DNA of 64,000 nucleotides from Eledone cirrhosa (taxonomy: Eukaryota): assembly GCA_964016885.1 (NCBI GenBank), contig OZ024757.1, positions 17,050,001 through 17,114,000 on the forward strand, written 5' to 3'. The notes under the pieces were generated by a model. That model saw only the letters and a program-made list of their open reading frames with translations. It was not told the origin of the DNA and did no database searches. Position numbers and translations under genes: made by a program. This document shows positions 1,075 through 64,000 of the stretch, in pieces; position 1 is the stretch's first letter, and every line of letters begins with the position of its first letter.

Positions 1075-1412
1075 TCCCCACCACCACCCCACTCTCAAGA
1101 GCGTGAAATTAATAAACATTCGTTGTACTGCCTCTCTGTTTTGTTCCCGTTCAATTTTTCATTATATATATATATATATATATTGAGAGGTGGGTAGGTA
1201 AATATATAAAGATGCATATATATATAACATATATATATATATCATATCATATATATATATATATATCACATATATATATATATATATCATATATATATAT
1301 ATATATATATATAAAAATGACTTCTATATGATTAAAACTCTTTTATCGTATACTCTACCAATGTATTGAGTACCTTTTGTAACTGTAGTTCCATTCCGAA
1401 TATATATATATA

Positions 1413-1603
1413 TAGGAAAAAGTATGACCCCGCCGGCAGAGCTCAAGCTGTTTCGACGGCTATTTCTGGACTCGAAACGTCGAAACGGCTTGAGCTCTGC
1501 CGTCGGGGTCATACTTTTTTCCTATTACCCACTCTACTACCCTAAGTATTGAGTACTCTGGTGCGTTAGGGTCCATCTGGTTCCTTACCACAACTCCTTC
1601 GTT
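1413..1603 (+). mobile_element. Short PLE family A copy (3' end of the 55.8-59.3 kb element) with inverted 5' arm, in (TA)n
   Basis: GAAACGGCTTGAGCTCTGCCGTCGGGGTC...TACCCACTCTACTAC...GTATTGAGTAC...CCTTCGTT resembles the reverse complement of 55787-55925. Confidence 0.85.
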
Positions 1604-1896
1604 ATATATATATATCTGAAGATCAACTAAATAATAAATGAGGCCTCAGTGAGGTCATTCGAGCAGCTAGAAATGACAGTCAATTTTCCTCCCAAATCAC
1701 ATCCTACCATTGTAAAGAAGGAAATAGAATACATTAGAGAAAAAGAGATAATGTAGTCATTGATATCTACAAAAAAAGATGGGATGGTCACAACAGGATT
1801 GCTGCGCTGCATCTGATCATGTTTGTTTAGTCGTTGGGAAAGAGAGAGGGCTACAAACACAATATATATATATATATATATACACATGTGTGTATG

Positions 1897-4795: not shown

Positions 4796-5619
4796 TCTGA
4801 AATGTAACTAATTAGGACCATTATTCCACTCAGTACTCCATACCAACGAAAAGTAGAATATAATAATGATTTTCTGCTCTGTGGTTGAGCTTTTACTGTT
4901 TCATTTGGTCATAAAACGGTAAAACCCTTATAACATACATCCATATGTGTGTGTGTGTGTATTCCCCGATCAAGCCAAGATTAGTATTAATAATTGTTTC
5001 TACTTTTGGCAGAAGGCCAGCAATTTCCCAGTAGATTACTGGTACTTTATTTTATCGACCCCGTAAGGATGAAAGGCAAAGTAAACCTCGGCGAGATTTG
5101 AACTCAGAATGGCAAGGGCCGTAACTCTATGCGTCAATAATGATGTTCATTAAATTTTATTTCAACACATTTTAAAACTTCACTACACAGATTAGAAAAA
5201 AGGCAACACACACATATACATACATATACATACATATACACACACACACAAAAGAGGGCAATGAGAAGTTTTAGAGAGAATAATTTTATAAATTATTCTA
5301 AACTATAGAAGTGTAGAGTAATATTGGAAACAAAAAGTAAAGTTAAAAATAAAAATGAGTTGACATAAAACATTTTAATGGCAAAAACAAAATGCAGAGA
5401 GAGGTATATATGACAGGGAGAAAAGACAGCCGAGAAAGAGAGAAAGCAGTGGAGTAGGTCACCACCGCCGTCGCCATCATTAAACCAACACCGCCATTAC
5501 TACTAGTAGTAGTGAACTCATTGTTATTCGTTTCATCCATCGTATATACATAACATATATATATATATATATATATAGATATATATATACATGTATGTGT
5601 GTGTGTGTATACGTGTATG

Positions 5620-28633: not shown

Positions 28634-31384
28634 TAATAATATAAAATAATATAAAAATAATATAAACAGTATATTACCAAATATACTATACATACATTCA
28701 TGTATACATCGCTATTTCAGAGCACCAATCCTAATATATATATATATATGAAAAATTCAGGACCCCGACCGCTGAGCTCCTGCCATTTCAATAGCTACAT
28801 CCGAGCTCTGAGTTCGGATCTAGCTGTTGAACGGCAGGAGCTCAGCCGTTGGGGTCATGAATTTTTCATATATATATATATATATATATCAGTTTAAACA
28901 ATATGTAACAGGATATATCAATTGAGAAACAGCCAGTATTTTGTACATAAATACATACTTCAGGATGCTATAACAGCCTTCATATATACATACATGCAAA
29001 TATATACCCACACCCAAATATATATAGTACAGGGAAAAATTTGTGCTCGATGGTGTGAGCTCAGCCGTCAGACACTAACTTTTCATTACACATACACTTT
29101 ACTAAGCTGAACAGGGTCTTACTAGTCTAAACTAGTAACTCCCAATCTATATATATATAGATGTGGGTGTATATATACTTTTTTTAAAGTTGGCTGATGT
29201 GTAGCACACAAAACAGATATGAGGAAATGATAAAGTTTACTGATAGTATTATATTTACTATTGTATTTTCACGGTAAAAGCTTTACCTCACATAATTATC
29301 TCATATAATATCGAATCTATGAGATTTTGATGTCATTTGTTTTGAGAATAATACCTTAACAGTATGAGTGGCCAGTTAAAGCCAGTTTGAACAGAAAGGG
29401 GTGAGAGAATTCTGACCGGATACAGCCAGTTCAAATGCTAAAGAGTTGAAGTGGGAACACTGGTACCACAATAAAATGATGAATGGTGGTGTTGGTGTCA
29501 CAATAAAATGCACCCAGAACGCTCTGTAGAGTGGTAGTGCTGATATCACAATAAAATGCATATAATACATTCTTTACAGTGGTAGTGATGGTGTCACAAT
29601 AAAATGCACCCAGTACACTCTGTAGAATGGTGGTGTTGGAGCAACCGTAACACACAGATAGTACGGTACACACTGTAAAGTGGCAGAGCTGGTAATTACT
29701 TGAAAATCATAGTCAGTGTCTTTCATTAAAAAAATGGTAACAATTGGGTTATAATAAAGAAAGAGAGGGAGGATGGAAGGAAGACAGACAGCCAGACAGA
29801 AAGCTATATACATTCTACACCAGCTTTGAATGGCTAAGCATTATTATTATTAATTCTTCTCAAGTCAGTCATCATGCCTGATTCTCCACACAACATGGCA
29901 GTGTGCCTTAGTGAGAGAGGGAATTGTATGCTTTCTCCTTTATCGACAAATATTTCATCACCACCACTGCCACACAACTCATATACATGTGAGTCTATAT
30001 ACATTTATACATACCATGTACCTCTTGGTGTAAAAACATGGGCATATATATATATATATATGACTGCTTCAATAAATTAACCGTTACATATACAATAAGG
30101 ATATCCGTAGTTAAAAATTTGCCTGGCTCCCAATGAGAGGCCAGCATTGAAACAGCTCCTCCAATATACAGTGGTAGCCACAACTGGACCCCTAGACCTA
30201 AGGTTACAAATACATGTTAAGTATATGAAATTTTAATTATATATATATATCTTAACCAAATATACACCCCAATCCACTACCCCTACCCTATCCTTCCACT
30301 CCCACCAACACCACCCTCTCTCTGTAAGGTTGGTACCACAACATCCAGTCCAAATAAATGAGATGAGATTGAGATCGTGTAGGTGTCACAACAACAAAAA
30401 AACACGCATTCCACACTGTAATGTGGCCGTGTAGGTAACATGGTAAAAAGTTCCCAGTTCCACACTGTAAATGTGGTTGGTGTTAGGAAGGGCATCCAAC
30501 AGCCGTAGAAAACTTGCCAGATAGTCCTATATGAGCGAGACACGGTCACCCAACCAACCTTGCCTCAAGTGGGACAACTCCCGTCTAACCCATGCTAGCG
30601 TGGAAGATGGACGTTAAACGACGATGATGATATATATATATATATATACCCGACTTCCCACGGGTACAAGCCGAAGCTGAAGCATATAGACAACATGCCC
30701 CCCCCCCCCCCCCCCCCACACTTCAAAATGGTCGTGGAGGTGCCACGCCAAAAAAGCACCCAGCCCAGATTGTAAATGAGGTTGGTGTTAGGAAGGGCAT
30801 CCAGCTGTAGAAATCAAGCCAGAATCAGTTCCCATATGAGCAAGACAAGGTCAGACGACTGAGCACTTTCCACAACAGGACAACCCATCAAACCCATGCT
30901 AGCGTGGAAGAATGGACGTAAAACGGTGATGATGATGATGATACACACACACACACACATATATATAAATATGTGGTTGGTGTTAGGAAGGGCATCCAGC
31001 TGTAAAATACCCAGTCAAATTTTCAGTCCTCATCGGAGCAAGCTGCGGCCAACTCTAGACAGACTTGCCTCCGGGTGGTGACGACCTGTCTAAACTATGC
31101 AAACATGAAAAAGTGGATGCTAAACAGTGATGATGATGATGATATATATAGAATAATCGAGAATCGGAATATCAGCCCACGAAATCACGATAAACAATAT
31201 CCGATATATGTGGCAGAGGGCTCAATAATTTGGAAAAATCAGAGCTATAACTATCGTTAAAATACCAACACATAGAGATCATGCCTAAAATCACCCGTGC
31301 AGCCGAAAAAGAACGACCAGGAAGATTCGGGTCACTCAAATAAAATATCAATAAATTAATAAATTAAATGAAATATATATATAT

Positions 31385-36907: not shown

Positions 36908-37947
36908 TACCGTATATATTCGAATATAAGCCAACCCAACTATTTCATATCTGAGAAATGGGCAAAAATTCAAACTTTATTTACATAGAATTTGAAGTTG
37001 GTGAAAATTGTCAAAACATTGACCCCAAATATAAACTGACCAACCTCTTCTACCATTGAGTTTTTTGGCCACATATTCCTTGGCTTATATTTAAATATAT
37101 ATGGTTATATATATATAAAGATTTACATCTACATAAACATAAAGTCATAGATATATATGTGTTTTGCAACCGGTCACGTTGTGGCTCAATGAAGAATTAA
37201 TAAATTAAATAATCAGAGCAATATATCATAAATCATATCTTTAGAATTATTAGATAAAATATATACCATTTCCTCTACCAATTAACATAATTAACCATAT
37301 AAAAAATCAATTAGACCAAGCTATAAAAATAAAGGCTCCTATGAAGAAATTTCCGACAAATAACCGAAAGCGGCCTCTTCGTGGTGGCCCCGATAGAGTA
37401 TTTATCCAACATTTCAACAGCATGTAGAAATTGACTAAATAACCGTCAACTATACACAATTAGGTGTAAATTCAAACTTAGAAGAAATGCGTACATACCG
37501 TAATTGGTAGAGAAAATGGTATATATTTTATCTAATAATTCTAAAGACATGATTTATGGTTATATATATATATATATATATGAAAAAATTCAGGACCCTG
37601 ACGACTGAGCTCCGGCCATTTCAACAGTTAGATCTGGATCTAGCTGTTGAAATGGCAGGAGCTCAGCCGTTGGGGTCCTGAATTTTTTCATATTACCCTC
37701 TCTACTATGCCAAGTATCAAGGACTCTGGTGAGTAATGGTCTAACTGGTTTTTACTGCCTCCAAATATACCAGATTTGCTCGAATATAAGCCAACCCCAC
37801 TATTTTATGTCTGAAAAATTATTTATGTAGAATTTGAAGTTGGTGAAAATCATTAAAATACTGACCCTGAATATAAGTCGACCCCCACCTCCTTCTATCG
37901 ATTTCTCAGTCACATATTCCTCGGCTTATATTCGAGTATATACGGTA
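36908..37947. mobile_element. Two copies of a TA-flanked Tc1/mariner-superfamily MITE (36908-37105 and 37768-37947), separated by a fold-back element and a family A copy (37580-37762)
   Basis: TIR TACCGTATATA.TCGAATATAAGCC / GGCTTATATTCGAGTATATACGGTA. Confidence 0.7.
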
Positions 37948-38774: not shown

Positions 38775-39120
38775 CCTTGCAAGCAGGGAAAAAGCGGACG
38801 TAAAATGAAATGATGATGATGATGATGACACACAACACCACCAGCTCTCTCTCACACTCTTCCATTCTCCTTCTCTGTCTCCTCTCCCTCTCTCTATGTC
38901 TCTCTTTCAATCTATACTCTCACAACCACTATCTCTCTCTATCTTTCTCTCTCTCTCTTTATGAAGGTACCCGGAAAAACCCCATATCTCGGGAACCTGT
39001 GGTCCGGTTTACATGAAACTTGTATCCCCATCCAAAGTATCTTCCCATTATGCACCCTTTTGGCTGTATTACATTACAGATAAGCAATCACAGACTTTTA
39101 GTATTATATAGATAGATACA

Positions 39121-39931
39121 GAGGGTCAGAGTTTTAGGTGATATATGGAGGGTCAGAGTTTTAGGTGATATATGGAGGGTCAGAGTTTTAGGTGATATAT
39201 GGAGGGTCAGAGTTTTAGGTGATATATGGAGAGTCAGAGTTTTAGGTGATATATGGTGGGTCAGAGTTTTAGGTGATATATGGAGAGTCAGAGTTTTAGG
39301 TGATATATGGAGAGTCAGAGTTTTAGGTGATATATGGAGAGTCAGAGTTTTAGGTGATATATGGAGGGTCAGAGTTTTAGGTGATATATGGAGGGTCAGA
39401 GTTTTAGGTGATATATGGAGAGTCAGAGTTTTAGGTGATATATGGAGGGTCAGAGTTTTAGCTGATATATGGAGGGTCAGAGTTTTAGGTGATATATGGA
39501 GGGTCAGAGTTTTAGGTGATATATGGAGGGTCAGAGTTTTAGGTGATATATGGTGGGTCAGAGTTTTAGGTGATATATGGAGGGTCAGAGTTTTAGGTGA
39601 TATATGGAGGGTCAGAGTTTTAGGTGATATATGGAGGGTCAGAGTTTTAGGTGATATATAGAGGGTCAGAGTTTTAGGTGATATATGGAGGGTCAGAGTT
39701 TTAGGTGATATATGGAGGGTTAGAGTTTTAGGTGATATATGGAGGGTCAGAGTTTTAGGTGATATATGGAGGGTCAGAGTTTTAGGTGATATATGGAGGG
39801 TCAGAGTTTTAGGTGATATATGGAGGGTCAGAGTTTTAGGTGATATATGGAGGGTCAGAGTTTTAGGTGATATATGGAGGGTCAGAGTTTTAGGTGATAT
39901 ATGGAGGGTCAGAGTTTTAGGTGATATATGG
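39121..39931. repeat. 27-bp minisatellite, about 30 near-identical units
   Basis: Unit GAGGGTCAGAGTTTTAGGTGATATATG. Confidence 0.97.
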
Positions 39932-39939
39932 TGTGACAG

Positions 39940-40092
39940 TGGATACCAAGGCAGTAGAGAAGTATCAGAGGGCAGCCAAAGGTCAGGTGGCGCGATGATC
40001 TGACCCGATAACTCAACCCTACATGGCCCTAAATGGCCAGAGATAGGAAGCGGTGGAGATCAGCCAGGGAAGGGTTCCTCCAACAGGAGTGA
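39940..40092 (+). pseudogene. C-terminal relic of an RTE-clade LINE ORF
   Basis: WIPRQ*RSIRGQPKVRWRDDL...W..MARDRKRWRSAREGFLQQE*, with internal stops. Confidence 0.7.
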
Positions 40093-48914: not shown

Positions 48915-49969
48915 GCGAGATATGAAAACGATAGATCGATAGATATACAAAATCAGAGAGCGAGAGAGCAGGAAGAAGTTTAATGGACATATACAATTAG
49001 CTAGACAGACAAACAGCTTTAATTTTCGTCTATTTTCCCCAGTATAGAAATTTAATATAATGTGTAGAATATAATGTTAAAAATAAAACCGTAACTATTA
49101 ATGAGGCAAAGCTAATCAATTGTAATATAATTGTGAATTTTATGCAGGAACATTTAGGCAGCAAATAAAAATAAATCCTTGGGGATTTTTTATTATAAAG
49201 AAACCCAGTAAACTACCAACAAGTCGGGCGATATTTGACAAAGCGATCGTTATTAAGATGCTTAAAGCAGAGGATAGAAATGTTATATATCTAGTCCAGA
49301 AATAGCCGTCGAAACGGCTTGAGCTCTGCCGTCGGGGTCTTGAACATTTTCCTATATATATATATATATATATAAAACAAAGAAAGTGTGGTAGGAAACC
49401 AGGGGGACCATAACGCACCAGAGTACTCGATACTTAGTGTAGTAGAGTGGGTAATAGGAAAAGAGAAGCCCTACCAAATCGATAAATAATTACATTCCTA
49501 ACGTTTTTATAAGTGTTATTGTTAAATATGGAAGAAGAAGCTAGCATGGAGGATTTTTATCTGAATATTTACTGAAGAGAAATTTTTTCTGAGAAAATGT
49601 TTACTATTTCGTAATATCTAGCTATAAAAATATTCTGTGGTTTGATTAAAGTTGTCATTTGGTTAGATTTATTATCAAGTAAAACATATTTAGTTTCAGT
49701 AATGTCTCTAATTATTCCAACCAATATCAATGGTATCGAATCTGTCTTACGCTTGACAAAATAGTCCTAGATTGTCCCTTTTCCCTATCCCACTTTCTAT
49801 CTATCGATCTAGAATAACCTAAACTATATATATATGAAAAGATTCAGGACTCCGATGTCTTAGATCCGGCCGTTGCGGGGTCCCGAATCTCTTCATATTA
49901 GCCACTCTACTACCCCAAGTATTGAGTACTCTGGTGGATTATGGTCTAGCTGGTTTTTACCACACTCTA

Positions 49970-50486: not shown

Positions 50487-50872
<386 letters not shown>

Positions 50873-52481: not shown

Positions 52482-52602
52482 GGAGGTGAGTTTTATTGTA
52501 GTACAATAAAGCAATGCAGATATCGGATAAGAAGCACTCTACAGTTTGTAGGACTAGAGTATACATAATATAAGATCAAAAGATGGTTAAAGGAGTTCCA
52601 TG

Positions 52603-52671
52603 TATTTTATTATGCGCATTTCAAAAACAAACATCATCATGCAATAATATTTGTGTTTTCATCAGATAAAA
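52603..52671 (-). ncRNA. Hammerhead ribozyme, family E, inside a 95-bp-arm palindrome (52565-52762)
   Basis: Minus strand: TTTTAT-CTGATGA-long stem II (ACAAATATTA/TGATGTTTGT)-GAAA-TGCGCA-TA-ATAAAA. Stem III is the palindrome ATGCGCAT. Confidence 0.8.
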
Positions 52672-53380
52672 CACAAATATTATTGCATGATGATGTTTGT
52701 TTTTGAAATGCGCATAATAAAATACATGGAACTCCTTTAACCATCTTTTGATCTTATATTATATATATATATATATATATATAAAGAATCAAAAAGAACA
52801 GAAAGATGCAGTAAAAGAGCTCTAGGCAAATTGGTGTCTATTGAAACGTACGTTAGAACCGAATAAATCTCTTTTACTGCATCTTTCTGTTCTTTTTTAT
52901 TCTTTATACACGCCCCGGAGTATAGCTAAACTGGAATATACACCTATTTTCTGCATTTCGTTGAGCACCACTCTGTTGTAAGCTGACCTTCCCCTACACG
53001 GTACATAACACTGTGTCCTGGAAAACCTTAATGCACTCGTGCATAACCAATAACTTAATTTAGTTATTATTGCACCGACGTGAGGTATATGATTTTTAAT
53101 GCAATGAAATATCTATGATCGTCGGCAAATCACTGATGAAGGACTCATTTTATTACATGTTATCCATGTGCAACCTGCAGTATTCTTCTCCCCATTTTTT
53201 CATATATATATATATCCACCTCTCACCTCCTCTCTTCTCTAACAGTGACATGTCGCTATGTTAATGGCGAAGTTACGACCGTCAAAGCCCTTCTCCTCCT
53301 TCTCCCCTTCCTCTCTCACACAAACAGTTAGTAAACATATTCTCATCTGAGCTACTTATTAACTTACTATGCTTTTCTTT

Positions 53381-55748: not shown

Positions 55749-55788
<40 letters not shown>

Positions 55789-55879
55789 CGAAGGAAATGT
55801 GGTAAGGAACCAGGTGGACCATAACGCACCAAAGTACTCAATACTTGAGGTAGTAGAGTGGGTAATAGGAACCAGTAAG

Positions 55880-55973
55880 ACCCCGACAGCTGAGCTCAAG
55901 CCGTTTCGACGGCTAATTCTGGACTAAATGAAAATTTATCCTGGTATTTAAATAGCCGATCTTCTCAAGGGGT
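55880..55973 (-). ncRNA. Type I hammerhead ribozyme with U3-A8 core in the PLE 3' end
   Basis: ACCCC-TTGAGAA-GAtCGGCTA(loop)TAGCCGTC-GAAA-CGGCT(tgagctc)AGCTG-TC-GGGGT. Confidence 0.75.
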
Positions 55974-57085
55974 AATTCCATATATGGTCAAAGTGATTGT
56001 CAAAAATCAGTAGTAATTCGGTGGTTGCAAATTAGTAGGGGAGATGGTGGCTAAACCTGCCAGTAGGAGAAAGAGGGGAGGGGGTGGAGTAGACCCAATC
56101 AAGCGTTGGTAGTGCCAGCTACATCTGGGCATGAGGTCAAAGAAGATACAGGGGAGGGGGAGGGGGAGGAAGTCGGAACGGTAGGTAGAACAATGGGGGG
56201 TAGAAATAGGAAAGAAAAAATACTGAGAGTGAAGAAAAGCAAATAAGTGTAAAGAAAAAAGTAAAGTAAATTAAATTCTACGACCTAGGTGTCAGGCTAT
56301 TGTTAGGCGAGAATAAAATAAAGAAAGAAAGAAAGAAAGAAGTAAATAAATAAATAAATAAATAAATAAGGAAATAAGTAAGAGAACTAGGTGGGACGGA
56401 TAAGGCAAGGACCCTTTTAAGAGGTATAAGTACGTAAATGATACGGTGACGGGTCAACAAAAGGGGCCAAAATACTAAAGAGACTACCACGAAATAAACA
56501 ATAAAGGTTTCCATCCCGGGCCAGCAACGACCCAGTGCAGCAAAGTGAACTTGTACGAGATAATAATTCTGAGTCCCGAGAAAAATATATACTAATGCTA
56601 ACTCTAAAAGATCTAAAACAAGCTACATGAAAGTTCGTACGAAATAAAGGTAGAATACGGAGAAATAAATTCAGAATCCACCCCGCCCGGAGGAAAAGCG
56701 AAGCAAGAAATACTGAAACGAAAAAATAAGGCATAAGTGCCACTAAGAAATATAGAGGGCACAGAGAATAGTGGGAGCGGTCGGAAAAAGGGGGAAAGTA
56801 TCCGGGGTCTAAGCCAACTGCTATAAAGGGCGGAGTCCGCCAAATCTATCAAAGACTAGGGGAGGGGGGGGGGGGGGTACTAAGGCTACATGGGGCCAAA
56901 GGGCAGCCTCGGGTGGGCGAGAAAAGACGCCGACAAAGGAGAAGAGCTGGGGTAGAAGGACAAAGGAGAGAGGGGGGAAGGAAATAAAGGAAGCGATAAA
57001 AGAATACAAAGAAGATCTTACGTCTTCCTTGGCAAGCAGGGGTTACCCATTGCAAAATCGGCAACTGGGGTGTTATAGCCCTAGT

Positions 57086-58789
57086 CTACCCCCTCGGGTC
57101 ATTATGGGGTTTGAGGGCGAGGTAAGTCCTACGCAATCTATGTTTACATGCAGTAACCAGTTCATCTTTCTTGTTTAGGAGTTGGTCCGTCGAAAACAGC
57201 ATTTGTAAAGTTTCCTCCGAGCATAAATTGCACGGACGGCGTCCTCCCGTGTAAGAATTGGCTCTGGACAGTAATCTCCAAGTGAGATCATAGGTGATGT
57301 TGTTGTCCTTGAGGTCCCATATGTGGCCCGAAAGTGTAGTGGCGTGACGCCGGGCCGGGTTTCGGAAGGTATGTCTATGTTGGTATAGCCGGGTCTTGAA
57401 GTCACATGCGGTAAGTCCTATATAGGCTTTGTTGGAGGTATCCGTCCTCACGTTGCACTGGTAGATCACATTACGGTCTCTGCATCTATTGTCGAGTGGG
57501 CAAATAGATCTATCCGGGCAGTTACACCTCCTGGTCGGTTCTCCACTGCTAATTAGGTTATTTCTGCCATCGGGGTTGAGTTTTTTGTTGTTAGAGGAGA
57601 CGATGTTTTGTGCGAAGTTTGGTGTAGTGCTGTAAGAGAGTTTGATGGTATTTTTGTTAATTATGTTGTGGTAGCGGTGTTGTAATGGGAAGTGTTTTTC
57701 AATGAGCCTAAAGAATAGTTTCCCGATGGGAGTAGTCACCTCTGCGTTGTGGGGAGGATTGAACCATGTTACATTGCGTGAGCGGCGGTGTCTCCTGCTG
57801 GTTCCGCTAATGGGAGCTGGACAGTAGGATATTTCCTCCCGGAAACCACTCCGCTTGAGGGCCTGGTTGTAATAAGGCGCATGTTCATCGAATATCCGCT
57901 CATTAGCTGACAAACGGGATATGCGGAGGGAGATGTTTTTGACCAGGTTGTTTGTGATGTTCCTAGGATGGTTTGATCGGCGGTGGATGTAGTGCAGATT
58001 GTCATTAGGTTTCCTGTATGGATAGTACAGGTCGTTTTCGAGGTCGAGGGTTACGTCCAGGAAGTTTACTCGGGTCAGGGACGTTTGTAGGGTTATTTTA
58101 AATCCCCAGTCGCGGAAGAATCTGATTAATTGTTTCCGGACCCGATCTGTACTACTGGGGTTGTACCCTTTAAGGGTAAGGAGCCCATCATCACGGTACA
58201 ATCCACCACCGAATGCAGGAAACATATCAATGAGTTTGGCTATTAGGAATAATCCTATAAGATCAGTGACCTCCGCCGAATCCGTGGCGCCCATGCTGAC
58301 GTCGAAGGGTGAGTCGGGAGCTCTTTTTATCCATTTAGAGTCGTCAAAGAGTAAGACTGTCTTCCTGGCGTGGAGGATGATTTTTCTTTCCTGGTCGGTG
58401 ATGGGCACTAGTGTTTCGGCGAAGTCCAAGGCTGCAGTAAGTAGCGGTAAGGTGATTGAAGCATAGTAGCTCTATATGTCGAACTGTATGAATTTAGTTT
58501 ATCGTTTATCCTCCATATTGCTGAACCAGGAGATTACTTCCTGGGTGTTGATCCATAGGCTAAGTCGGGTGTGTTGCTTGACTTTTGGTATCACGCGGTC
58601 TAGGATTTTTTTGCTGATTCTCCCTATGTCGGACTTCGTTGGGTTAATAAGCCTGATGGAGGGTTTACGGTCAAAATCGGATTTATGGTCCTTCAGTGTG
58701 AAGTATGGTGTCCGTGGGTCTAGAGGTTCCGTGCGGTCGGCGACCCCGAGGCTGGAGGTGATTTGTTGTCCATCTCGATTTATGTCCTT
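57086..58789 (-). pseudogene. PLE reverse transcriptase-GIY-YIG endonuclease polyprotein, 5'-truncated, with two in-frame stops (58499-58501 and 58472-58474); open from 58471 to 57086
   Basis: Hand translation upstream of the 447-aa ORF gives YFTLKDHK...RLINPTKSDIGRISK...QFDI*SYYASI. Then come MGATDSAEV, LYRDD, FLDV, SNHP, the CNCx5C linker, VIY...YIG, FKTR, CNLCSEE and LLNK. Confidence 0.92.
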
Positions 58790-59218
58790 GCCTTATCCGT
58801 CCCACCTAGTTCTCTTACTTATTTCCTTATTTATTTATTTATTTATTTATTTACTTCTTTCTTTCTTTCTTTATTTTATTCTCGCCTAACAATAGCCTGA
58901 CACCTAGGTCGTAGAATTTAATTTACTTTACTTTTTTCTTTACACTTATTTGCTTTTCTTCACTCTCAGTATTTTTTCTTTCCTATTTCTACCCCCCATT
59001 GTTCTACCTACCGTTCCGACTTCCTCCCCCTCCCCCTCCCCTGTATCTTCTTTGACCTCATGCCCAGATGTAGCTGGCACTACCAACGCTTGATTGGGTC
59101 TACTCCACCCCCTCCCCTCTTTCTCCTACTGGCAGGTTTAGCCACCATCTCCCCTACTAATTTGCAACCACAGAATTACTACTGATTTTTGACAATCACT
59201 TTGACCATATATGGAATT

Positions 59219-59312
59219 ACCCCTTGAGAAGATCGGCTATTTAAATACCAGGATAAATTTTCATTTAGTCCAGAATTAGCCGTCGAAACGGCTTGAGCTC
59301 AGCTGTCGGGGT
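59219..59312 (+). ncRNA. Inverted second copy of the U3-A8 hammerhead; predicted cleavage after C59307
   Basis: Same fold as 55880-55973. Confidence 0.75.
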
Positions 59313-59322
59313 CTTACTGGTT

Positions 59323-59450
<128 letters not shown>

Positions 59451-61432: not shown

Positions 61433-62617
61433 CTCTAAGCTATAGCTTATTTAGTTCATAAGTAAGTCCAGTACAGTATCTTGCTCTCTTCCGTGTTCCG
61501 GGTGGCGGTGCCCGGGTGTGTGGCCGAAACCACAAGACTGGGAGCGGGGAAAGTGCCGCAGCACGTGGCAGCAAATTACACAGCATTTCAGACAAAATAA
61601 TTAACTAACTCACTAGCTAGCTAGCTAGTTAATTAATTAAACTAAATAAATATACAAACATGTACTAGGTTGATGAGTGACTGTAGACAGGACTTCTCTC
61701 CGACAACATCCTTAAATCTTACAAGACCAACCTTAACCTTAACACGTACTATTTAATCAATGAGAAAGCTACACATACACACTTAGCTTCATCACCACCA
61801 TCACCATTATCATCATCAACGCCATCATCATCATTACCATCACCACCACCACCACCATCACCATTATCATCACCACCACCACCAACATCACCATCATCAT
61901 CATTATTATCATCACCACCATCATCATCATTATTATCATCACCACCATCATCATCATTATTATCATCACCATTATCACAATCATAACTATTATCACCTCA
62001 TCAATAAAATCATCATCATCATCATCATCATTACAAACATCATCACTACCATCACCACCATCACTACTATCATCACCACCACCACCATCACCATCATCAT
62101 CATCACTATCACCACCACCATCACCATCATCATCACCATCATCATCACAAACATCATCACTATCACCAGCACCATCATCATCACAAACATCATCACTATC
62201 ACCACCACCATCACCACCACCAGCACCATCATCATCACAAACATCATCACTACCACCATCACCATCATCATCACAAACATCATCACTATCACCACCACCA
62301 TCACCATCATCATCACAAACATCATCACTATCACCACCACCATCACCATCATCATCACAAACATCATCACTATCACCATCACCATCACCATCATCATCAC
62401 AAACATCATCACTATCACCACCACCATCACCATCATCATCACAAACATCATCACTATCACCACCACCATCACTACTATCATCCCCACCACCACCACCACC
62501 ATCACCATCATCATCACAAACATCATCACTACCACCATCACCATCATCATCACAAACATCATCACTATCACCACCACCATCATCATCATCATCACCATCG
62601 TTATCACCACCACCACC

Positions 62618-62648
<31 letters not shown>

Positions 62649-62735
62649 ATATCATCATTATCATCATCACCTTCATCAATCCCAGCATCACCACCACCGC
62701 CACCACCACCATGGTCACCACCACCACCACCACCA

Positions 62736-63157
62736 CAGAAGTCTGTCCTCTTGGTGGCTTTAATGTTAGCCCTGACCCTGTATAAGATTGTAATATTTTA
62801 AGGTCCAGTAATGCGTCCCTCAGAAGTCTGTCCTCTTGGTGGCTTTAATGTTAGCCCTGACCCTGTATAAGATGGTAATATTTTAAGGTCCAGTAATGCG
62901 TCCCTCAGAAGTCTGTCCTCTTGGTGGCTTTAATGTCAGCCCTGACCCTGTATAAGATTGTAATATTTTAAGGTCCAGTAATGCGTCCCTCAGAAGTCTG
63001 TCCTCTTGGTGGCTTTAATGTTAGCCCTGACCCTGTATAAGATGGTAATATTTTAAGGTCCAGTAATGCGTCCCTCAGAAGTCTGTCCTCTTGGTGGCTT
63101 TAATGTCAGCCCTAGCCCTGTATAAAATTGTGATCTTTTAAGGTTCAATAATGCACC
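62736..63157. repeat. 85-bp tandem repeat, about 5 units, flanked by (CAY)n (61790-62735) and (RTG)n (63198-63935)
   Basis: Units start CAGAAGTCTGTCC at 62736, 62821, 62906, 62991 and 63076. Confidence 0.95.
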
Positions 63158-64000
63158 CGATAGAATCAGTGCCCTCCGTAGCTGTCTTGTTGGCCTTAAT
63201 GATGATAGTGATGATGGTGGTGGTGGTGGTGTTGGTGATGGTGGTGATATTGGTGATGATTGTAATGGTAATCGTGATATTGGTGGTAATGGTGATGGTG
63301 GTGTTGGTGATGGTGGTGATATTGGTGATGATGGTGGTGGTGATATTGGTGATGATGGTGGTGGTGAAGATGATGGTGATGATCGTAATGGTGATGATGA
63401 TGATGGTGGTAATGTTGATGGTGGTAATGATGGTGGTGATGATGGTGTTGGTGGTAATGGTGATGGCGATGATGATGGTGATGATGATGATGGTGGTAAT
63501 GGTGATGGTAATGGTGGTGGTAATGGTGGTGGTGATGGTAATGGTAGTGTTGGTGGTGGTGGTGGTAATGGTGATGGTGATGTTGGTGGTGATGGTAATG
63601 GTGGTGGTGATGGTAATGGTGGTGGTGATGGTGGTAATGGTGATGTTGGTGGTGGTAATGGTGGTGGTGATGGTGGTGGTGATGGTGGTAATGGTGGTGG
63701 TGATGGTGGTGGTGGTAATGGTGGTGGTGATGGTGGTGGTGATGGTGGTGGTAATGGTGGTGGTAATGGTGGTGGTGGTGGTGATGGTGGTGGTGATGGT
63801 GGTGGTAATGGGGGTGGTAATGGTGGTGGCGATGGTGGTGGTAATGGTGGTGGTGATGGTGGTGGTAATGGTGGTGATAATGGTGGTGGTGATGGTGGTG
63901 GTAATGGTGGTGGTGATGGTGGTGGTGAAGATGGATTGACAAGACTCGATATTGTTATTTTAGCCCTAGGTCAGCTTCTATTATAGTAGAACTATGATCG

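Follow-up and report, generated by a model that had tools for sequence, protein, structure and literature searches.

Hammerhead ribozymes occur in the pLTRs of Penelope-like elements (PLEs), where their function has been called unclear (Craig et al., 2021; PMC8557442). As published there, PLEs of the Hydra clade insert into (TA)n targets and carry an inverted 5' copy, a tail and a hammerhead near the 3' end; the Hydra elements are mostly shorter than 3 kb, PLE tails are stated to measure 30-40 bp, and all 26 of the 26 Hydra rows in File S2 have a C3-G8 pair, a loop II of 3-10 nt and a loop III of 1-3 nt. A U3-A8 pair has been reported for the min-HHRs of S. mansoni Cercyon PLEs, with about 1,300 hits (Cervera and de la Peña, 2014; PMC4209133). 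As described there, these are type I motifs in the pLTR with a long helix II, a short helix I, G10.1-C11.1 and a palindromic helix III region, but they are minimal, lacking a true helix III, and carry one additional base at 9/10.1; the text of PMC4209133 describes no assay of the U3-A8 form. Perreault et al. (2011; PMC3088659), on natural core variants, describe U3-A8 covariation as active in vitro, and section 8 of that paper describes no C3•A8 mismatch in a replicating lineage. In the Poseidon element PAc of Anolis (Frangieh et al., 2024; PMC11167929), two internal reverse transcription (RT) start sites are described as defining the tail and AT-rich DNA is nicked on both strands; hammerhead mutants do not block its insertion in vitro, and cutting needs protein. 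A review on PLE hammerheads further describes palindromic stem III loops and cutting as a dimer.

The hammerhead reported here lies in a 64-kb stretch of Eledone cirrhosa DNA (the window), within an element that has the Hydra-clade architecture but is longer (3.5 kb) and has a tail of about 80 nt. The 26 Hydra rows of File S2 all have C3-G8, and measured against that published set its U3-A8 pair is new to the clade. It shares the listed features of the Cercyon motifs and differs in having a stem III of 5-6 bp with a 7-9-nt loop, a loop II of 37 nt and no extra base. PAc, as described in PMC11167929, differs in its C3-G8 pair, in a hammerhead that overlaps the ORF start and in having no RNA-seq ends at the cut site, whereas genomic ends at that site exist here.

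Judged from its sequence, the host is a young Hydra-clade PLE with the hammerhead in its pLTR. Copies with an intact 717-aa ORF are present elsewhere in the 3.0-Gb genome, and this ORF bears the marks of the Hydra clade: RLRWRTFF, an RWR variant of the RWK-type motif, and SDKTGN, with DKT instead of DKG. Its linker reads CNCPDRSIC (CxCX5C), and the GIY-YIG flanks, an endonuclease motif recognized by eye, are CNLC-SEE (CxxC, conserved E) and LNKK...CKH (conserved N, CxH); a Pfam search of a 461-aa ORF piece returned 0 families. The protein has 2,101 database homologues, mostly unnamed and 38-45% identical among the best 120 of the 2,101, the likeness of the element to Hydra-1_Obim was judged by eye, and copies are inserted into (TA)n, as in the Hydra clade. 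The intact unit is 3,542 bp long and occurs four times in tandem with 99.8-99.9% identity. Exact matches genome-wide number 2,217 for the 5' half of the motif and 23,328 for the tail; among the matches listed for the former (100 of 2,217), U3-A8 goes with G7 in 99 and with A7 in 1. The 3' ends of copies lie at +20 relative to the cut site in 12 of 30 and at +100 in 11 of 30. The coordinates are collected in Table 1. The preliminary description had placed 59219-59321 at the 3' end of the element; these positions belong to the inverted 5' arm and run antisense to the ORF, and the RNA-sense copy is 55880-55973 on the minus strand.

Table 1. Features of the hammerhead and its host element in the 64-kb window (positions are those of the window).
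Feature	Position	Strand	Remarks
Main arm of Hydra-clade PLE insertion, 5'-truncated	55782..58788	-	98.8% identity to intact 3,542-bp unit
Inverted 5' arm	58784..59327	+	99% identity to 3' pLTR
RT + GIY-YIG ORF, 5'-truncated	57086..58786	-	in-frame stops near 58500 and 58473
Tail, end A to 3' end B	55782..55864	-	end B about 100 nt past cut site; second putative RT start
3' end A (CCTAT, then (TA)n)	59324..59327	+	about 20 nt past cut site; putative RT start
Type I hammerhead, inverted 5' arm copy	59219..59312	+	antisense to ORF; predicted cut after C59307
Identical hammerhead in 3' pLTR	55880..55973	-	ORF sense; predicted cut after C55885
Predicted distal stem I (59213-59218 / 59319-59324), 6-nt bulge	59213..59324	+	P about 0.8; base meets 3' end A
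Core U3 U4 G5 A6 G7 A8 A9 (TTGAGAA)	59224..59230	+	lineage variation at 3, 7, 8 alone
Stem II (59231-59239 / 59277-59284)	59231..59284	+	37-nt loop II with weak hairpin (59251-59258 / 59263-59271)
Loop II boundary, 5' end of about half of genomic copies	59262..59273	+	contains TCATTT and TTAGTCC
Stem III with self-complementary loop GAGCTC (59295-59300)	59288..59306	+	loop = commonest letters in 12/12 subfamilies; predicted dimer contact
Short two-armed insertion, same subfamily as window hammerhead	50593..50843		both arms begin in loop II
Short two-armed insertion, older F-type subfamily	1412..1608		3' half only
Older fragments	49289..49460		3' half + tail
Short two-armed insertion, old B/C group	28761..28856		3' half only
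Short two-armed insertion, old B/C group	37594..37750		3' half only

Three further observations concern other copies and the tail. The four tandem units (G000:C1:91473243-91487432) alternate in likeness, u0 and u2 differing at 2 sites, u1 and u3 at 4 and the other pairs at 6-8, which suggests a duplicated dimer or a dimeric template copied twice; in all four the frame is open from stem III across the ~190-nt 5' UTR into the ORF, 784-786 codons from one stop to the next. At the joint of a main and an inverted arm (about G000:C1:91489170-91492700), some 60 head-to-tail copies of a 55-bp ORF piece form a minisatellite born at the 5' junction. The tail motifs CTCTAC...AAGTATTGAG and CTTCGTTAT (window 55782-55864, minus strand) resemble by eye the 3' end of the coral element Hydra-2_Amil as given in File S7 of Craig et al. 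(2021), hinting at possible clade-wide RT start signals.

The stems, the TTGAGAA core, GAAA and the GUC triplet all lie where the preliminary description had put them, and its reading, a type I hammerhead with a U3-A8 pair carried by the pLTR of a young PLE, is supported. Stem I pairs ACCCC (59219-59223) with GGGGT (59308-59312), stem II consists of 8 bp with one bulged U and opens with G10.1 (59231) paired to C11.1 (59284), GAAA occupies 59285-59288, and stem III has 6 bp, including A15.1-U16.1 and one G•U, closed by the loop UGAGCUC; the last base of the cut triplet GTC is C59307. Both arms carry the motif, identical over 128 nt. The bases expected of a hammerhead (U4 G5 A6 A9, G12 A13 A14, A15.1-U16.1, H17, G10.1-C11.1) are all present, and a Watson-Crick 3-8 pair is found in the window copy (U3-A8) and is absent from the ancestral subfamilies G-I and D described below. 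The predicted minimum-energy fold of 59201-59327 is the three-way junction of helices I-III with open ends in stem I (pair probabilities 0.71-0.98 in stem I, 0.61-0.76 in stem II and 0.48-0.75 in stem III), and its folding energy does not stand out (z +0.18 and -0.78). By prediction, dimerisation through GAGCUC is favoured, at -27.7 kcal/mol against -11.2 kcal/mol for a pair of separate hairpins.

The full descriptor matched these two copies alone in the window and 0 times in 100 Markov resamples of 64 kb, and a covariance model built from 12 natural representatives gave 12 matches in the window, two complete and ten partial. As had been anticipated, standard models miss the motif: Rfam returned no family at E<=10 for 59180-59328, presumably as expected for a variant core plus a 37-nt loop II, and over the whole window gave AT-hairpin miRNA noise alone among the matches listed (150 of 270). 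The sites at 1486, 28832 and 49314, previously regarded as older copies with a retained stem III, do have CGGC/GCCG, the ancestral state; however, they belong to the ten partial matches and are 5'-truncated, and as they hold the 3' half only they are not ribozymes. The G•U in stem III of the window copy is the commonest letter in the youngest subfamily only. Just 5' of stem I, the palindrome CCATATATGG (window 59205-59214), commonest in 9 of 12 subfamilies and with one change in E-G, is a possible endonuclease target inside the element's own pLTR. In a second organism (B, run X5), a 185-nt contig matches window 55957-56140 with 2 differences and 1 gap, covering the TTGAGAA core; the organism may be a close relative or the element a recent transfer.

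A pattern left free at positions 3, 7 and 8, with the youngest subfamily excluded, matched 4,509 times genome-wide. The first 100 of these comprised 74 U-A, 24 C•A and 2 U•G; counted by state across the genome there were 1,442 C•A, 39 U•G and 11 C-G matches, with the C•A, U•G and C-G patterns all requiring a CCCC stem I, which undercounts old copies. The preliminary description had proposed conservation of TTGANAA and the three stems as a test of the family, which the family fails in part: 1,442 of the 4,509 sister matches have C3 with A8, so the 3-8 pair is not always kept. C•A is seen in both arms of single insertions and was therefore already in the template. We divided 155 complete copies into 12 subfamilies on the basis of positions outside 3 and 8; rare states were deliberately enriched in this set, which includes two pairs of duplicates. 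A tree of these copies with 3 and 8 masked is a ladder (few columns, rough supports), along which divergence within subfamilies drops from 11% (C, B) to 1.3% (M, the subfamily of the window copy), and a separate tree of 36 ORF ends, rooted at the midpoint and with B absent, gives the same order. On the ladder stand C (C-G, some U•G), then B (U-A, some U•G) and D (U•G), E-F (U-A), G-I (C•A) and J-M (U-A). As read from these sequences, the 3-8 pair thus ran along the lineage through C-G, U•G, U-A, C•A and U-A; the direction is based on divergence and on C-G in published relatives, the tree having no outgroup.

Changes between subfamilies have a pN/pS of 0.07-0.23, against 0.36 for private changes, and this low trunk ratio identifies the C•A elements as coding, replicating ancestors of the window copy; the synonymous distance from G/H to J/K/L is pS 0.18. 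A C3•A8 mismatch (G8A) is expected to cripple hammerheads. Ancestors with a mismatched and probably crippled core kept jumping. The commonest letter at the remaining core positions is identical in 12 of 12 subfamilies, except that C11.1 is T in the oldest, likely through CpG decay. Stem I, CGGC/GCYG and GAGCTC are likewise unchanged along the ladder (the preliminary description's stem III and GAGCUC palindrome are thus kept across subfamilies), whereas loop II diverges; in contigs, N7 and 10.2 are the only sites between U3 and 10.2 that vary at 5% or more. Stem covariation is slight: two pairs change on both sides, 3-8 and one stem II pair (59235/59281; G-C in A-type, A-U in B/C subfamilies). 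Cells predicted to pair do so in 89.5%, against 18-53% in slid controls, and the covariation score was reached in 7 of 500 shuffles and equalled by one slid control. Two other accounts of position 3-8 were rejected: clean C-G/U-A covariation, with only 11 C-G matches, the 7 of A-type being most plausibly derived from C•A copies by back-mutation, and a direct path from C-G through C•A to U-A, since the trees place U•G and U-A before C•A.

Among tail matches, 972 lack C17 and 18,610 have it, and 18 of 30 inspected copies of the 972 had true 5' ends at G1.1 by eye (one further inspected copy begins at -8 and is kept out of the 18), which corresponds to about 580 of ~19,600 tail-bearing copies. 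Starts at neighbouring positions are fewer, about 206 at C17 (14/30 of 442, with 5 of the 14 being blunt joins and possibly G1.1 ends) and about 85 at +5 (5/30 of 511), so that G1.1 starts, about 3% of tail-bearing copies, exceed their neighbours 3-7 times. The inverted arm also stops at G1.1 in 10 of the 18 inspected copies. Head-to-head joins with 0-10 spacer letters gave 573 strand matches, or about 290 insertions; of the first 52, read by eye, 29 are G1.1/G1.1 with a short, mostly A/T insert, 15 are blunt and ambiguous, as they could also come from CG microhomology, and 8 extend further. An unbiased sample of 100 copies contained 3 that begin at 0..+2, not visibly over background, and genome-wide counts were therefore needed. 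Copies reaching the 5' UTR showed an excess of starts at the cut site (5/27, p 0.005), which the 3 informative ones among 20 further copies did not support (0 of 3); long copies and tandem arrays cross the motif scarless.

With several hundred copies beginning at the predicted cut site, the ribozyme likely cuts in living cells, and the pile-up at G1.1 is likely a footprint of in vivo cleavage after C17. These genomic ends also suggest that the preliminary description was right to regard the motif as functional, with cleavage after C59307. Ends at G1.1 in both arms are a better fit to a single RNA with the 5' end of the ribozyme's 3' product than to two independent stalls. We also compared eras by tail class, an imperfect proxy for core state (some G tails have an F-type loop), the share of each class being tallied by eye on 100 of the 18,610 C17-bearing matches. 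Both-arm joins at the cut site, including blunt or unclear ones, occur in 10/967 of F (U-A) and 4-6/1,654 of G/H (mostly C•A; p 0.01-0.04), and unambiguous joins alone in 6/967 and 4/1,654 (p 0.19); scaled joins per tail copy are about 1.5% in M/L, about 2.7% in K and about 0.6% in mixed I/J. Cut-site ends look about 3-4-fold rarer in C•A classes (p 0.01-0.19), which is suggestive only.

Far more copies begin within loop II than at the cut site. Of 100 consecutive tail matches, 54 begin 34-45 nt 5' of C17, 0 between -46 and -224, and 6 are long; a gapped re-count of the same 100 gave 55 within -47..-34, 1 at -56 and 7 long, while moving about 15 ends to -47 via chance matches to the inverted arm. 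Summed contig depth, which is not a copy number, drops about 18-fold across loop II. The boundary contains TCATTT and TTAGTCC, which we take to be initiator-like motifs. We give about even odds to a transcript start at this boundary, the alternative being a protein-made block; in Drosophila Penelope an internal promoter has been described within the pLTR. Among long copies 2 of 63 begin in loop II and 46 of 63 run past -80, so a start in loop II cannot account for the 5' ends of most full-length templates. TTTAG, within this loop, was rejected as a splice acceptor on the 16 of 100 copies that include bases 5' of the AG, and the loop II hairpin was rejected as the cause of the stop, since family B, with a different loop II, stops there too (16 of 22 copies at -42..-34, one of the 22 being A-type and measured against the wrong reference). 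At the other end of the element, of 90 copies running past end B, 27 stop 35-437 nt beyond it, several near +100 to +106, which suggests minor RT start sites in the 5' UTR.

The reading that we favour, and consider probable from these genomic sequences, is of a type I hammerhead that likely cuts, after C17, only a minor fraction of the RNAs made by the element and on which most insertions probably do not depend. The element's protein would nick (TA)n on both strands, reverse transcription would be primed at ends A and B of one RNA, and both cDNAs would extend to the 5' end of that RNA, usually the loop II transcript start and sometimes the ribozyme-cut end, before the two are linked head to head; uncut multimeric or re-ligated RNA would be the template of long copies. 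Cutting would affect a few percent of templates and may require the GAGCUC dimer, or protein. With both RT start sites on the 3' side of the cut, rapid cleavage would detach them from the ORF, barring re-ligation of the RNA; a slow ribozyme would consequently be favoured, which would explain the tolerance of U•G and C•A cores. Against this stand the possibility that RT stalling at the three-way junction also piles up ends at G1.1 and the Anolis RNA-seq data, in which no reads ending at the cut site are described (Frangieh et al., 2024; PMC11167929). Taking stalling further, the fold could be kept as a non-cutting signal bound by protein or read by the RT, the ends at G1.1 and in loop II being stalls at RNA structure or bound protein. 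On the trunk the C•A core lasted through about 0.1-0.2 synonymous changes per site, which would agree with this, as would the run of most templates through the cut site, the near restriction of the loop II stop to short copies, a pattern that a block close to the start sites would give, and the persistence of insertion in vitro with mutant ribozymes as described in PMC11167929. However, independent stalls of ~3% would rarely coincide, yet the other arm ends at the same base in 10 of 18 copies; moreover, catalytic-core positions are fixed while loop II is divergent, the 3-8 pair went back to U-A after C•A, and joins look rarer in C•A classes. We therefore regard a purely structural role as unlikely.

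Alternatively, the ribozyme could be obligatory, with cutting followed by re-ligation into unit-length circles (the Cervera and de la Peña model), circles as the only long templates and a C•A core that remains active enough, perhaps through a protonated wobble or protein help. The arrays of four 3,542-bp units (99.8-99.9% identical), scarless at the cut site, speak for this, as do the 46 of 63 long copies that reach far upstream of the motif and a few G1.1 joins in G/H tails, but tandem-unit read-through accounts for the same copies, one unit-length circle would not give alternating units (u0~u2, u1~u3) and a circle does not provide the loop II ends of about half of the copies, which makes this model quite improbable in our estimation. 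Much the least credible is the version of the preliminary description, a fast monomeric ribozyme stabilised by a pseudoknot between ACCAG and CTGGT. The two segments are present as described, and the 5-bp match in 34 of 37 L/M copies could be a recent gain; stem III, too, is longer than in published Hydra hammerheads. A conserved pseudoknot, however, did not hold as a family feature: the match is confined to these 2 of 12 subfamilies, with 0 of 98 copies in the other ten, and CUGGU is shared with the predicted distal stem I (P about 0.8), which would compete with the pseudoknot. Fast cutting is further opposed by the about 95% of tail-bearing copies that retain C17, meaning that most templates were uncut or re-ligated. 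Returning to a slow and occasional ribozyme, a bolder extension of it, which we hold to be possible but doubtful, is that the ribozyme forms a natural dose-response record, the lineage having walked through C-G, U•G, U-A, C•A and U-A while replicating and left G1.1 scars in each era; a transcript starting in loop II would hold half a hammerhead completed in trans by the 3' copy, and PLE hammerheads would be optional, tuned-down switches and not obligatory devices for processing.

The U3-A8 swap, offered in the preliminary description as the novelty, is already published for PLE hammerheads and as natural covariation and is of modest interest alone; what is new are the genomic ends at the cut site, the replicating C•A grade and the loop II stop. 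A literature search, with subscription papers and the supplements of Cervera 2014 outside its scope, found no genomic PLE copies ending at the cut site; nor did it find a replicating C3•A8 lineage, though Lünse 2017 and the Cervera 2014 supplements, likewise outside the search, may list similar PLE variants. Insertions with G1.1 ends in both arms would provide a DNA-only readout of cutting, countable in any assembled genome. The subfamily ladder offers natural C-G, U•G, U-A and C•A cores in a near-identical scaffold, whose rates in vitro could be compared with the scar frequency and copy number of each era, and it records a compensatory path via a mismatch in a catalytic RNA.

Other repeats were seen in and around these copies. 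On the minus strand of locus L034 (7326-8498), a 391-aa RT frame, unrelated to the element and presumably LINE-type, adjoins a full PLE copy. Within the window, a near-perfect, MITE-like, AT-rich inverted repeat of 124 nt (52602-52725) is a source of sub-threshold spurious miRNA matches, a 27-bp minisatellite spans 38981-40063, inverted (CAT/CAC)n arrays lie at 61998-63933, and another dispersed repeat family of ~150 nt is represented at 4989, 53954 and 60787.
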